Below, piece by piece: positions 21,001 through 27,000 of a DNA stretch of 64,000 nt; within the stretch, counting starts at the first letter, position 1; the number at the start of each line of letters is the position of its first letter. A program made the position numbers. The stretch is from the NCBI RefSeq assembly GCF_056712565.1, contig NZ_CM160072.1, one strand, 5' to 3'.

Positions 21001-24000
21001 TTAACAATACCTGATTTTTTTGGAATGAAAGAAGGAGTGCTGAGTTGTATTATTCCTGAATGTATAGGGAAAAAATATTATGGGTAACTATCATATCGGG
21101 GATGGTGAATGTAGATTTAGAGTCGTGTGTTCTTCACCAGATGTATGTGAAGTAGGAGGTTACAAGGTTCCTTTTGACAGTTACCAGACTTTAGATAGTG
21201 AAAGACAGTACAGTTCAACGGTATGGGCGCGTGGATGCAGAGCTTTAAATGTTGGTTCAGTGATTGCTGGAACTCAAAGTAATGCCGGTAAAGGTGTCAT
21301 ATCCGGTACATCTCAAGGAACGGGTGACTGTGTTATTTTAACGGGAAGTCCGACTGTAACAATAGAAGGGAAACCTGTTGCTTATCATGGTTCAGTTGTT
21401 GGGATTAATAACCACAACTGCCTTGGTAAATTGTATACCAAAATAAAATCACCAATGATTTCTGTCATTGATAGAACTTTTAATTATGAAAGGACTGCTG
21501 AAGTAATACACGATTTACTGCTTCTGAAGGATCTCCTCTCTGTTGGTAATATTTTTGACGGAGATATTTCACCTGAGGTTAAAAATGATTTATTTCAAAT
21601 AAAAGATCCTGACCAATCATGGGGGGAGTTTTTTTCAATAAAGAATATCAGAGAATCTCTCAGGAATGGTATTGAAGGAGATAAATCTCAGATCAGAGAA
21701 TGGTTTGGAGAGAACACACTTACTCAAATGGGGAATGGAGCAATCACCACTTTACATGGTGTGGCGGATTTAGCCTTAGTTACATTCGATGCTCTGTTAG
21801 ATACGGCAACGGCAACGGTTGCTTGCCCGATAGGCGAAGATGGGTTATGTGAACAGGCAAATATAAATTTAAATGAAAAAGAACAGGCTTTATTTAATAT
21901 TAGTAATTCATTGATAAATGGGCAAGCATGGGATGCACTTAAAAAAATGATAATGGATACAAATAATGGTGATCAGATTGCTCTGGTGCATTTTGCCAGC
22001 TTTTTATGGGGCTTTATGATACCCGCAAAAATACCAGAAGAAAATATCTCTGGGAAAGTATTTGTAGAGCCAGTAGTTTTAGAAGGTGGTGCTGGTGGCA
22101 ATTGGACAGTATTTGATGAGGTTTTAGATTCAAATGTAATAAAGCAATTGACTTTAACAGGCTGTGGAGCGGCCTGTGGGGAAATGTTGCTTAGGGATAG
22201 GTATATTTTTGTCACGCAAAATGTAATTGGAACAGAATTAACATCTATGACGTCGCTGGCAAACAAGCTTAATAAATTTGATGTCGGCTGGGAAGGGAAT
22301 GCAGTGAGCGAATCTAGTTTATATGCCCTCAGTAATACTGGTTCATGGGGAGCAATGATGTGGGATTCTGGAAGTAAAGTAGGGCATTGGGTACTTGTTA
22401 AGGGTGTTGATGATGCTGGGAATGTGATAATATATGATCCATATCAAGGGAGTCGATATCTGATGACTGAACAGGAATTTAAGGAGGTATGGAATGGGCA
22501 TAGTGTTTACAAACCATAATATTGATTTGTTATCGGTTGAATTTGATGAGATTACAAAAAATTGTAATTACACTTTTAGTGTAGATGGAGAGACGGCTAT
22601 CTTTACTGCTAGAATATCAATAATAAGAAATATAAAGGGAATTAAATATAGCGAAGAACTTGATAAATTTATAATGTCAATAATGCCATTGCAGCCTAAA
22701 GTATCAAAAATTTTGGGAGGTGTTACTTGGGATTGTATTTGTGGTAAGGAAGTTGGATTTCCTGTGAGATTAATTGGTAAGTGAAGGGTGGTGAGGTATT
22801 TCTATATTTTTTTCGTGAAAGTCTTTAAAACTGAAATTATCTTGTTGGGAGCCCAAGGTGAGATCATAAAACGTATTATTTTATAAATATTGTTATGCAG
22901 GGAAAGGTCAAGTAATGCTGCTTTTTTGTACTAAATAATTCGCATTTTATGTTCAATAATTGAGGTGTTCCTTATTACCTAAAGCTGTTTTTCATTGCTT
23001 ATACATGATCAAATACTCATTGCCTAATTAAGGGGGACAAAATGGAACTTAAAAAATTGATGGAACATATTTCTATTATTCCCGATTACAGGCAAGCCTG
23101 GAAAGTGGAACATAAATTGCCAGATATTCTATCTGTTAACTATTTGCGCCGTTATTTCTGGTGCATAATGCTGGGAAGATATAGAGGATTTGGGGAAACA
23201 CATCTCGATTTTTTGAAGTGATATGGTGATTTTGAAAATGGTATTCCTGTTCACGATATCATTGCCAGAGTTGTATCCTGTATCAGTCCTGCAAAATTTC
23301 ATGAGTGCTTTATTAACTGGATGCGTGACTGCCATTCCTCAGATGATAAAGATGTCATTGCAATTGATGGAAAAACGCTTCGGCACTCTTATGACAAGAG
23401 TCGCCGCAAGGGAGCGATTTATGTCATTAAAATCCGTCTTCATATTATTTGCGATGTCCCTGATGAACTTATTGATTTCACGTTTGAATGGAAAGAGCTG
23501 AAGAAATTATGCATGGCAGTCTCCTTTCGTTCAATAATAACAGAACAAAAGAAAGAGCCAGAAATGACGGACAGATATTATAGCATTTCTGCTGATTTAA
23601 CCGCAGAGAAGTTCGCCACAGCGAACCGAAATCACTGGTACGTGGAGAATAAGCTGCACTGGCATCTGGACGTGGTAATGAATAAAGACGACTGCAAAAT
23701 AAGAAGAGGAAATGCAGCAGAATTATTTTCAGGGATACGGAAGATCGCTATTAATATTTTAACGAAAGATAAGATACTCAAGGCAGGGGCAAGATGTAAG
23801 ATGTGAAAAGCAGCTGCGGACAGAGACTACCTCGCGTCAGTCCTTGCGGGGGCGGGCTTTCGTATTCTTGCTCTGCAAGGGATGATAAAAAGTGCAACTT
23901 TATTCCACGCAGCTATTTAGACAGCGTACAGTAAACAAACGAAAGTTGTTATTTCAATGGTCAGGGCAAGAGCATGAAGTGTTTACTACACACTATGCTC

Positions 24001-27000
24001 TTGTCCTGGAGTCAGGTCTTGTTTGGAGGGATAAATGGTAGATATTGTCGAGGCCGATAAAACGGATATTTATTTCATTCAGGAGAGTGTTTATGGCAAA
24101 ATCGGGTTGCCAGCTTTTGGTAATACAATAGGACCATCCGCACAGCAAGTTGTTAAAAAGGTATTCGCTGTCGTTAAAGAACGAGATAAGACACATGCAA
24201 AACAGAGATTATTGTTGGAATATAATGGTAACAAACTCTGGATGAATGCTATTGATGGCAGTGAAGCTATCCTACCAACAGAATTTTCTAAGCGATACGA
24301 ACTTTCATTATTCAATACTACTAATTTTGGAGAAGATCCTTTTCCTGATGTTAATTTATATAATAATATGAAATCAAGTTTTTTTGTAAGGTTTGGTGGA
24401 ACATCCCATCCCGAGGCTTGGGCTATTTATAATGCAAGTACGAAAGAGGTTAAATATATAGAAACTGCAAGAGAAATTGATAAAATATTCAGTGATTTTA
24501 ACTTGAGTGGTACATTGCCAATTCACATTGGTCAATGATTTTTTAAATTGTGTGATTAAATAATTGAACATTAATGATGATTTATAGCATCATTATTATT
24601 CTATAACATGAATAAACGGATTGAATGTGTTATGTTAAAAATGAGTTTATACGTAATAATATTGTTATTTTCCCTTCAGTTTAGTGCAGCCATTACTGGC
24701 AAGGAAAGTGAGGTTGTTTCACCATTATTAATGGATGTTAATCCTTCACTAACAATGGAAAATATTTCTGAATTATCCACATCATCGGAACCATCGCAAC
24801 AGGGGGTATTTCCTGTAATATGTACTCGACTTCATCCTGGCTCCGTAATGAAACGTCAGTTATTAACCGGCTGGGGGCCTGTTTTTATAATTGGTGATGA
24901 TCCTTTTTCTCTGCGCTGGATGAGTGAACATCTGGAGATCCTTAAATCGCTAAATGCCCTTGGTTTGGTTGTTAATGTTGAATCAGTAGAACGAATGGAG
25001 GTATTACAGCAGCGGGCTGATGGGTTATTGTTATTGCCAGTTATCTGCGATAATTTTGTGCAAGCTCTGCAATTAAATGCTTATCCGGTATTAATCACAG
25101 AGATGGAAATATCACAATGATTAATAACATAATTACTGCTAATAATATGGTGATTTTGAAAATGGTAATCCTGTTCACGACACCATAATCAGAGTTATGT
25201 CCTGTATCCGTTCAGTAAAATTTCACGAATGCTTTATTAACCGGATGCGTGAATGTCATTCTTCAGACGACATAGACGTCATTGCGATTGATGGAAAAGC
25301 ACTTCCACACTCCTGTGATAAAAGTCGTCGCAGGAGAGCGGGCTTTCGTAGTCTTCCCCGACTCTCCCCGGCCCTAAACACAACCCCCACTCACCACAAC
25401 CTAAACTCATCCGCATCCCGCCATGCCGGAAACTTTTCTCTATATTCCCGCAATGCCATCATCGACAGCTCCGCATCAATGCGCGTTGCCTGATGCGCGT
25501 CGGCAGTAGCGATAATCTCGCCTTGCGGATTAATCACCCGGCTGTCACCGCGATAATGGCAGCCGTTGCCATCGCTGCCGACGCGATTGCATCCCGCCAC
25601 ATACGCTTGATTCTCAATCGCGCGGGCTGTCAGCAATGCCTGCCAGTGCAGAGAGCGCGGAGCAGGCCAGTTGGCGACGTACAGGGCGAGGTCATAATCG
25701 TTGAGATTGCGCGACCACACCGGAAAACGTAAGTCGTAGCACACCAGCGGCAAAATACGCCAGCCGCGCCATTCCACAATCACTCGCGCATTGCCCGCTT
25801 TATAATGTAGATGCTCATCTGCCATGCGGAACAGATGACGCTTATCATAAAAATGTACCGTGCCGCCCGGCTCAACCAGCAAAAAGCGGTTAACCGAACC
25901 AGACTCCGTTTGTAATGCAACACTGCCTGCAATCAGCGCATTGCACTGCTGCGCTTTAGCGGTCATCCAGTTCACTACGTCATCTTGTGCTAGCGACGAA
26001 GCTGCCGCTTCCATGGCAAAGCCGCTGGTAAACATCTCCGGTAGAACGATCACATCGCGCCCGGTAATACCTTCCAGTTGACGATCAAAATGGCGCAGGT
26101 TGGCAGGACCATCCATCCACACCAGTGGTTGCTGCAAAAGCGTAATCTTCAAACCAGGCACGGTGTACAACTCCTTTATGCGAAGGGTTTTATAACTCTA
26201 ACACCTTATCAGGCAGTTGCCTTAGCGCAGAATAAATTGATAACAAATGCTGATATTGGAAATATCTGATTTGCAAATTATCGTGTTATCGCCAGGCTTT
26301 AGGGAGTTAATCACATGGGCAGGATAAGCCCGGGAGGAATGATGTTTAAGGCAATAACGACAGTCGCCGCTCTGGTCATCGCCACCAGTGCAATGGCGCA
26401 GGATGATTTAACCATTAGCAGTCTTGCAAAGGGCGAAACCACCAAAGCGGCGTTTAATCAGATGGTGCAAGGGCATAAGCTGCCTGCCTGGGTGATGAAA
26501 GGCGGTACTTATACTCCCGCACAAACCGTGACTTTGGGAGATGAGACGTATCAGGTGATGAGCGCGTGCAAACCGCATGACTGTGGCTCGCAACGTATCG
26601 CTGTGATGTGGTCCGAGAAATCTAATCAGATGACGGGGCTGTTCTCGACTATTGATGAGAAAACGTCGCAAGAGAAACTCACCTGGTTGAATGTGAACGA
26701 TGCGCTTTCGATTGATGGCAAAACGGTGCTGTTCGCGGCGTTGACCGGCAGCCTGGAAAACCATCCGGATGGCTTTAATTTTAAATAATTAGCCGATAAA
26801 AAAACGGAGCCGAAAGGCTCCGTTATTCAATTACGCGGCTTCAACTTTCCGCACTTTCTCCGGCAACTTTACCGGCTTCGTCGCCAGCTCTTCTGGATCA
26901 AAGTCATCAACGTTAATACTGCGTAAACGGCTTTCTTCAGCTTTTACCAGAATAGCGGCTTCATCTTTATCAATCAGCCCCTTCGCCAGCGCGTTGTGCG

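Follow-up and report, generated by a model that had tools for sequence, protein, structure and literature searches.

Two genes between dead ISAs1-family remnants at a probable decayed edge of the aspV-associated type VI secretion island of B2 Escherichia coli

The present analysis concerns one segment of a 64,000-nucleotide stretch of DNA (the window; contig NZ_CM160072.1 of RefSeq assembly GCF_056712565.1), in which two plus-strand remnants of the H-repeat, an insertion sequence (IS) of the ISAs1 family, bracket two intact, AT-rich open reading frames (ORFs), ORF1 at 24035-24538 and ORF2 at 24608/24632-25120. This arrangement had been described in a first-pass annotation of the window, and it stands. 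The 2.7 kb around it are 100% identical to Escherichia coli UTI89, S88, APEC O1, IHE3034 and many other genomes of the sequence type 95 (ST95) type. Window positions equal UTI89 positions minus 246,527, and the features are, from left to right:

22898..23875, plus strand: ISAs1-family (ISEc1/H-repeat-like) pseudo-element, copy 1, placed by BLASTN and MAFFT against the K-12 yhhI H-rpt and the Ecol_316 ISEc1; RefSeq pseudogene, "frameshifted; internal stop"
23876..24034, no strand: spacer between copy 1 and ORF1, with a Shine-Dalgarno GGAGG upstream of ORF1 and homology to a divergent allele (ORF1') from about 23994
24035..24538, plus strand: ORF1, 167 amino acids, WP_000227712, preceded by the Shine-Dalgarno GGAGG; by its HMMER relatives a shortened acidic member of a family of about 190 amino acids, termed family X here
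24632..25120, plus strand: ORF2, 162 amino acids from the RefSeq start (alternative ATG at 24608), a PFL_4695/DUF2859 "integrating conjugative element protein"
25144..25340, plus strand: ISAs1 copy 2, an internal fragment (element positions 424-620) with 85% identity to the intact element; RefSeq partial pseudogene
25333..25340, plus strand: deletion junction of copy 2, within the 8-bp microhomology GGGGAGCG (GGAGAGCG in copy 2), by direct sequence comparison
25341..25360, plus strand: right terminus (degenerate right inverted repeat) of the ancestral ISAs1 insertion beside yafV, the terminus and flank being common with K-12 yafF

Taken as a whole, the site is probably the decayed right-hand boundary of the aspV-associated type VI secretion system (T6SS) island T6SS-1 (pathogenicity island PAI I) found in B2 E. 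coli, with yafV adjoining. In the RefSeq gene order, the tRNA-Asp gene aspV is followed by a yafT-like gene and by a minus-strand cluster with the complete T6SS core, then by plus-strand genes for Hcp, VgrG, a DUF2169 protein, a PAAR-like toxin and a 96-amino-acid ORF, and lastly by the ISAs1 transposase pseudogene, a hypothetical protein (ORF1), the "integrating conjugative element protein" (ORF2), the partial ISAs1 pseudogene, yafV, ivy and fadE. The LF82 genome paper gives PAI I at aspV as common to UTI89, S88, 536 and APEC O1, and the LF82 copy of this island carries a yhhI-type transposase (PMC2941450). Overall, the region shows the ordinary decay of an island edge, is annotated already, and holds one modest new lead, namely the family of ORF1 as a candidate T6SS effector family.

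Both IS remnants were compared with the intact K-12 H-repeat of RhsB (H-rptB, that is, yhhI with its flanks). By nucleotide homology both copies are members of the ISAs1 family, yet they are dead remnants rather than active elements: the intact DDE transposase ORF of about 378 amino acids is absent from each, copy 1 being damaged by a deletion, frameshifts and stops, and copy 2 being reduced to a 65-codon fragment. Set beside H-rptB (yhhI), ISEc1 and yafF, the remnants have the termini in common and retain 92% (copy 1, over element positions 102-633 and 946-1392) and 85% (copy 2) identity to H-rptB, but they differ from these elements in their internal deletions, 5' truncation, frameshifts and stops, and in having no Rhs element beside them. 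Copy 1 keeps both terminal inverted repeats (CAGGG...), the left at 22898 (CAGGGAAAG...) and the right ending at 23875 (...CTTGCTCTG), and by alignment to the intact H-repeat it is longer than first proposed, although the frameshift and internal deletion first ascribed to it are indeed present. The deletion removes element positions 634-945, or 312 bp in frame (104 codons), and leaves a junction at 23429/23430 (...GTCATTA/AAATCCGTC..., with an ambiguity of 1-2 nt). A +1/-1 pair of frameshifts lies at about 23131 and 23189, and stop codons are found at 23219-23221 (CAA to TGA) and, prematurely, at 23804-23806 (CGA to TGA).

Copy 2 is the internal fragment that it was first taken to be, truncated at its 5' end so that it starts 23 bp past the stop codon of ORF2. 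It does not diverge into the yafV flank, as had been thought; after ...CGCAGGAGAGCG/GGCTTTCGTAGTCTTCCCCG it runs on into the last approximately 20 nt of the IS (about element positions 1365-1390), and this degenerate right end is all that is left of its terminal repeats. Because the intact element carries GGGGAGCG twice, at about 612-619 and about 1365-1372, the junction of copy 2 is a microhomology-mediated deletion. The K-12 pseudogene yafF, at minute 5, is the 3' 280 bp of an H-repeat whose degenerate terminus (GGGCTTTCGTAGT...) and flank are those of copy 2, and the alignment of K-12 to the window starts at 25323 with 97% identity. The shared terminus and flank therefore make K-12 yafF and the UTI89 fragment (copy 2) two different wrecks of one ancient insertion. 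An old ISAs1-family element thus inserted beside yafV; the window lineage lost its first 423 bp and then about positions 620-1364 through the 8-bp microhomology deletion, whereas in K-12 only the 3' 280 bp of this insertion survive. Copy 1, an unrelated ISAs1/ISEc1-like element, inserted later between the PAAR-toxin/immunity module and ORF1 and was then inactivated by its 312-bp deletion, frameshifts and stops.

The first-pass annotation had placed both truncations at the same internal point and had taken this to suggest recombination or deletion events at one site, which the alignment to the intact element does not bear out. The left breakpoints lie 13 bp apart (copy 1 after about position 633, ...GTCATTA/AAATCC..., and copy 2 at about 620), the right breakpoints fall at element positions 946 and 1365, respectively, and the microhomologies at the two junctions differ. 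The copies are 82.7% identical to each other over 196 bp. Further, a 91-nt probe across the copy 1 junction is contiguous at at least 99% identity in only about 190 of 5,426 complete E. coli genomes, its halves elsewhere lying about 312 bp apart inside intact elements, whereas a 96-nt probe across the copy 2 junction is found in 1,079 of these genomes, once in each at 94-100% identity, including Nissle 1917 and enteroaggregative E. coli 042. On these grounds, that is, the separated left breakpoints, the differing right ends, the divergence of the copies and the unlike distributions of the junctions, the two deletions are independent and of very different age. One point weighs against this conclusion: by our own arithmetic, two left breakpoints would land within 13 bp of each other in an element of about 1.3 kb with a naive probability of about 2%, applied to a nearness noticed post hoc, which makes the coincidence somewhat unlikely a priori and a local fragile site possible. 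However, no hotspot or fragile-site feature was found at the left breakpoints, no survey of all ISAs1 deletions having been made, and the nearness is most likely a coincidence.

The alternative that a single recombination or deletion hotspot in the H-repeat made both truncations, with the two ORFs as orphan immunity genes of an Rhs or polymorphic-toxin locus, is thus very unlikely. It would account for the nearness of the left breakpoints, and the ORFs do stand downstream of a PAAR-like toxin/immunity module, a typical place for displaced orphan modules. However, the breakpoints are non-identical, and the right ends, microhomologies, sequences and junction distributions of the copies all differ. 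An H-repeat had been taken to mark an Rhs or polymorphic-toxin locus, but the annotation from aspV to yafV contains no Rhs gene, the toxin upstream being a PAAR-like/C39 protein. In addition, ORF2 belongs to a family of type IV secretion system (T4SS) proteins of integrating conjugative elements (ICEs), and ORF1 has no match to an immunity family, its relatives holding the effector position upstream of membrane proteins.

A comparison of the junction across strains bears on where the bracketed segment came from. The full ORF1-ORF2 segment is present in 541 of the 5,426 genomes (about 10% of complete genomes), nearly always as a single copy (median 1, maximum 2). In Ecol_316, positions 23876-23925 are absent and an intact ISEc1 abuts at 23926, its right end lying 50 bp closer to ORF1 than that of copy 1; upstream of this ISEc1 lies a further ISAs1-family element, interrupted by a group II intron (ltrA), the two elements falling within 669-4990 of the extracted locus. 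In OU349849 and PapM-32-1 the pair is a divergent one, ORF1' and ORF2' (68% and 76% amino-acid identity), followed by a full-length ISEc1-like element, an 87-amino-acid ORF and yafV. In PapM-32-1, this pair stands last in an unbroken T6SS cargo array on the plus strand and has no IS ahead of it, the genes running Hcp, VgrG, DUF4123, further genes, PAAR, VgrG, DUF6484, DUF2169, DUF4150, a PAAR-like toxin, a WD40-like protein, a 411-amino-acid protein, a thioredoxin-domain protein, ORF1' and ORF2'. ORF1 and ORF2 are therefore terminal genes of the island and not cargo of an IS: the 1.27 kb between the remnants was not imported by the IS copies and holds the last two genes of the island. Strain D10 carries a different island with IS2, then a disrupted ORF2, copy 2 and yafV, ORF1 being absent. 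What about 200 genomes retain is likewise limited to the ORF2 region, copy 2 and yafV, preceded by IS2 and an island of unrelated content, and the N-terminus of ORF2 is disrupted (annotated as 66 amino acids; D10 locus 7001-7754), from which it follows that ORF2 decays where ORF1 is absent.

Since two ISAs1 remnants in the same orientation flank a 1.27-kb AT-rich segment, the possibility that they formed a composite transposon that imported ORF1 and ORF2 was considered, and it was rejected as extremely improbable. The copies are 82.7% identical and of different ages, and no target-site duplication is recognisable. Copy 2 is common to K-12, which has neither ORF, and a different ISEc1 lies 50 bp away in Ecol_316. 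In almost all carriers, moreover, the segment occupies a single place in the genome, and in PapM-32-1 the cargo stands without the upstream IS. The IS remnants are routine in themselves; what they show is a boundary struck repeatedly by ISAs1-family elements, at least four independent times (the Ecol_316 element or elements, copy 1, copy 2/yafF, and the element in OU349849 and PapM-32-1).

Two further observations concern the strains with the divergent allele. The AT-rich, 87-amino-acid ORF between the full-length ISAs1 element and yafV (10555-10818 of locus L007 and 22656-22919 of locus L042) lies in a segment that is absent from the window and from K-12, where the right end of the IS and the point of divergence are 5 bp apart. 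Ahead of ORF1' and ORF2' is a conserved three-gene block (L007 4931-7576, L042 16975-19677) encoding a WD40/BNR-like protein of about 330-346 amino acids, a 411-amino-acid protein with a partial TIGR02270 match and a 137-amino-acid thioredoxin-domain protein. This block follows the PAAR-like toxin in PapM-32-1 and a Mn-catalase/DUF892 region resembling the katN island of enterohaemorrhagic E. coli in OU349849, and its members may be immunity or orphan genes.

Judged by its sequence, ORF2 is a member of the PFL_4695/DUF2859 family that stands isolated and is not part of an ICE. It matches TIGR03765 (the PFL_4695 family) with 121 bits against a cut-off of 59.75, over model positions 1-105 of 105, and Pfam DUF2859 (PF11072) with an E-value of 1.3e-28. 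A signal peptide is followed in the protein by a disordered linker and, at the C-terminus, by a thioredoxin-like domain without CxxC; the position of that motif is occupied by GDDxxSxxW, which is invariant in the family, and ORF2 keeps all of the family-invariant residues. Outside E. coli its nearest relatives, with 44-50% identity, come from Salmonella, Citrobacter and Erwinia and are named "integrating conjugative element proteins". The first-pass annotation had treated ORF2 as a protein of no known kind that might be an immunity protein, but in Pfam and NCBIfam it matches no described immunity family and matches the ICE family instead, an assigned function of the kind which that annotation had itself named as telling against its proposal.

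Proteins of the PFL_4695/DUF2859 family are periplasmic, with a thioredoxin-like fold, and in the conjugative T4SS operons of intact ICEs their gene has that of a lytic transglycosylase on one side and traD on the other. In the Salmonella ICE, for example, the order is pilL2, TIGR03759, lytic transglycosylase, DUF2859, traD, a DtrJ-like gene, further genes and TraC. By tblastn, neither the window nor the related loci of E. coli contain such a neighbour (pilL2, TIGR03759, lytic transglycosylase, traD or other T4SS genes). ORF2 is thus like the proteins of PAPI-1-, SPI-7- and ICEclc-type ICEs in its full-length domain match above the cut-off, its signal peptide and its identity to the Salmonella and Citrobacter proteins, but it differs in having no flanking T4SS genes and in lying at the end of a T6SS island. 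DUF2859 has been described as one boundary of a cargo hotspot in PAPI-1-type islands (PMC12629846). A second likeness is by structure only, and consists of a weak match to F-plasmid TraF-type proteins lacking CxxC. In F-type conjugation systems, the thioredoxin-fold protein TraF lacks CxxC, and ORF2 resembles it.

ORF1 has no match in Pfam, NCBIfam or PADLOC, the last of which also gave none for ORF2 or the upstream neighbours. No PDB sequence match and no fold match was obtained for it, the AFDB search returned only uncharacterised members of its own family, and a search of the literature for the proteins by accession found no papers. A word-indexed search with ORF1 recovered E. coli sequences only. 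An exhaustive HMMER search recovered 31 relatives, mostly of 180-200 amino acids and with 30-40% identity, to which a profile search of a set of 5.8 billion proteins added little. The resulting family X is spread over Enterobacterales, Burkholderia and other bacteria, and its alignment contains a conserved N-terminal block, GIYFIxEQIYxKxGLPxLxNTIGPS, and a conserved C-terminal block, FGxDPxPxxxLYxN...GGxxxPTAxAKYN. An internal segment of about 30 residues that the relatives possess is missing from both E. coli alleles of ORF1, and the E. coli protein is acidic (isoelectric point (pI) 5.6), whereas the relatives are basic (about 9.2). The predicted structure of ORF1 consists mainly of beta-strands. 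Between the two E. coli alleles, the ratio of nonsynonymous to synonymous divergence (dN/dS) is 0.30 for ORF1 and 0.36 for ORF2, at dS values of 0.6 and 0.39, respectively; both are therefore real genes under constraint. By hhalign, family X is not related to the lytic transglycosylase whose gene precedes DUF2859 in a real ICE.

The neighbourhoods of family X provide the principal clue to what ORF1 may be. In nearly every locus, X is immediately followed by an ORF of 100-160 amino acids (Y) with 3-4 predicted transmembrane (TM) helices, which is either co-directional, often overlapping, or convergent and abutting. The order is katG, X, Y, DUF805 in Serratia, can, X, Y, hpt in Morganella and marC, X, Y, DUF805 in Pantoea agglomerans, and the X-Y pairing recurs in several metagenomic contigs; at a Rep3 plasmid locus the membrane ORF lies upstream of X. 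Many of the cassettes contain a third gene, encoding a small DUF805 (YhaH/YhaI-like) membrane protein (loci L009, L014, L027-L029, L033 and L039), which suggests a module of three genes, X-Y-DUF805, in Serratia, in Pantoea and on some of the metagenomic contigs. Two contexts outside E. coli are linked to the T6SS. In one, X lies 16 bp downstream of an orphan hcp. In the other, a metagenomic cluster (L031), the order is tssM, tagF, tssA, tssB, tssC, X, Y, effector-like genes, and then tagJ, tssE and tssF. Both E. coli alleles of ORF1 likewise sit at the end of a T6SS island.

The most likely reading, at about even odds, is that family X comprises T6SS cargo effectors carried by Hcp, with Y, a small inner-membrane protein of 3-4 TM helices, as the candidate immunity protein. 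In that case, E. coli ORF1 would be an orphaned, remodelled member of X, about 30 residues shorter and acidic, and because the membrane partner is missing in E. coli it is probably not an active antibacterial toxin. A toxin-associated role, as first suggested for the bracketed ORFs, is thus plausible for ORF1 as a candidate effector remnant, whereas the suggestion of an orphan immunity gene finds no immunity family to which either ORF could be matched. Reglinski et al. used the same neighbourhood argument (dispersed loci, a small membrane gene and some linkage to hcp or the T6SS) to define the Ssp4 effector family (10.1101/2024.11.27.625605). The likeness of X-Y to Ssp4-Sip4 and Ssp6-Sip6 of Serratia lies in a small soluble protein followed by a small 4-TM protein, at loci that are mostly remote from the T6SS, with some adjacent to hcp or inside a cluster; in contrast to such pairs, E. 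coli ORF1 has no membrane partner. There is no sequence relationship between X and Ssp4, and a pore-forming effector of the Ssp4 kind was rejected for X, as Ssp4 is alpha-helical (13 alpha-helices, with predicted TM helices) and the ORF1 model is beta-rich. Tfe1 (Ssp3), an antifungal T6SS cargo effector of Serratia marcescens with 183 amino acids, is also encoded away from T6SS genes and has homologues in Enterobacterales, Burkholderiales and other orders (PMC6617251). Its small size, unknown fold, remote locus and spread across orders are features in common with X, but its small partner gene sip3 lies upstream and it has 183 amino acids and 20.6 kDa, against 193 amino acids and 21.9 kDa for the Serratia X. 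Compared by description rather than by sequence, size and partner position argue against X being Tfe1/Ssp3.

Several observations weigh against the effector reading. Only 2 of about 14 distinct X contexts outside E. coli are T6SS-adjacent, those in Serratia, Morganella, Pantoea and most metagenomic loci not being so; the E. coli ORF1 has no adjacent membrane partner, ORF2 following in its place, and has shifted in pI as described; and neither conserved catalytic residues in the alignment of family X nor a structural match is evident. It is possible, if rather unlikely, that family X is unrelated to the T6SS, X and its membrane partner forming a phage-defence or abortive-infection pair or a membrane-stress module to which T6SS adjacency is incidental. 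Most of the X-Y(-DUF805) cassettes do stand between housekeeping genes, such as can/hpt in Morganella, katG in Serratia and marC/gntP in Pantoea, and one X-Y locus is on a small Rep3 plasmid. However, PADLOC found no matches, X lies 16 bp after hcp in one locus and directly after tssC in a core cluster in another, ahead of effector/immunity-like genes, and both E. coli alleles end T6SS islands. In addition, a scatter of loci is usual among cargo effectors, Ssp4 and Tfe1 being examples. The proposal that X comprises Hcp-carried effectors would tie an unannotated gene present in about 10% of complete E. coli genomes to a small family with T6SS effector-immunity-like neighbourhoods. If true, it would supply a further effector family, whose target is probably the membrane in view of the integral-membrane partner, and an example of an orphaned effector kept at the end of the T6SS-1 island of extraintestinal pathogenic E. 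coli.

Some details of the X loci may be recorded here. The array between tssC and tagJ in the metagenomic cluster (L031 7001-12062) contains about nine small genes, among them X, a 4-TM protein, several signal-peptide proteins, a CHAP/NlpC-like protein of 126 amino acids and a 275-amino-acid protein whose C-terminus is a glycine zipper; Hcp was not recognised there, and the whole looks like a dense effector/immunity array. In Salmonella Senftenberg "plasmid 4" (NZ_LN868946.1), a truncated X homologue with a convergent small ORF lies at 5959-6630 between sseK1 and rpoC. This entry carries rpoBC and the thiCEFSGH operon and looks like a chromosomal piece filed as a plasmid. Similarly, NZ_CP141089.1 is held in the plasmid collection and, at 4.9 Mb, is a chromosome.

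The retention of ORF1 beside ORF2 in two alleles that have diverged to a dS of 0.4-0.6 counts against a pure debris view of the island edge, which leaves it unexplained. An alternative is that the two form a functional two-gene module, for example a remodelled effector with an ICE-derived periplasmic thioredoxin-fold protein as its immunity protein or partner. The pair is conserved together in both alleles, with both genes under purifying selection, and ORF2, which retains its signal peptide and all of the family-invariant residues, sits where other X loci hold the immunity-like gene. Strain D10, which has no ORF1, has a disrupted ORF2. Such a module is nevertheless unlikely: there are only two alleles, too few to show co-variation, no immunity role is known for DUF2859, X is usually partnered by an integral membrane protein rather than a periplasmic one, and synteny over such a time scale can be passive. 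The bolder combination, in which X is an undescribed family of Hcp-carried effectors (basic, beta-rich, of about 190 amino acids, with a 4-TM immunity protein) and its acidic E. coli variant has been re-paired with the domesticated T4SS protein ORF2 as immunity protein or partner, is quite unlikely. The decayed island edge, with ORF1 as a putative orphan of family X and ORF2 as an isolated DUF2859 protein, is thus preferred.

Scans for promoters and terminators were uninformative, at or near the shuffle expectation, no homologue of the Y-type membrane proteins was found in the window, and no literature tying yafV, yafT or the H-repeat to the T6SS was found. The features that adjoin the bracketed segment on either side are:

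21080..22519, plus strand: specialised effector of T6SS-1, PAAR-like at the N-terminus and C39/papain-like peptidase at the C-terminus; RefSeq "PAAR-like domain-containing protein", Pfam Tox-PAAR-like 1.4e-11 and Peptidase_C39 1.2e-5
22494..22784, plus strand: 96-amino-acid ORF overlapping the 3' end of the PAAR-like effector gene; GC content 0.31, no family match
25391..26170, minus strand: yafV (2-oxoglutaramate amidase), the core gene nearest to the island on its right side, from RefSeq and ORF calls

The 96-amino-acid ORF is likely the cognate immunity gene of the PAAR-like/C39 effector. The position of this module (21080-22784) is occupied by different toxin/immunity modules in other strains, for example in PapM-32-1.

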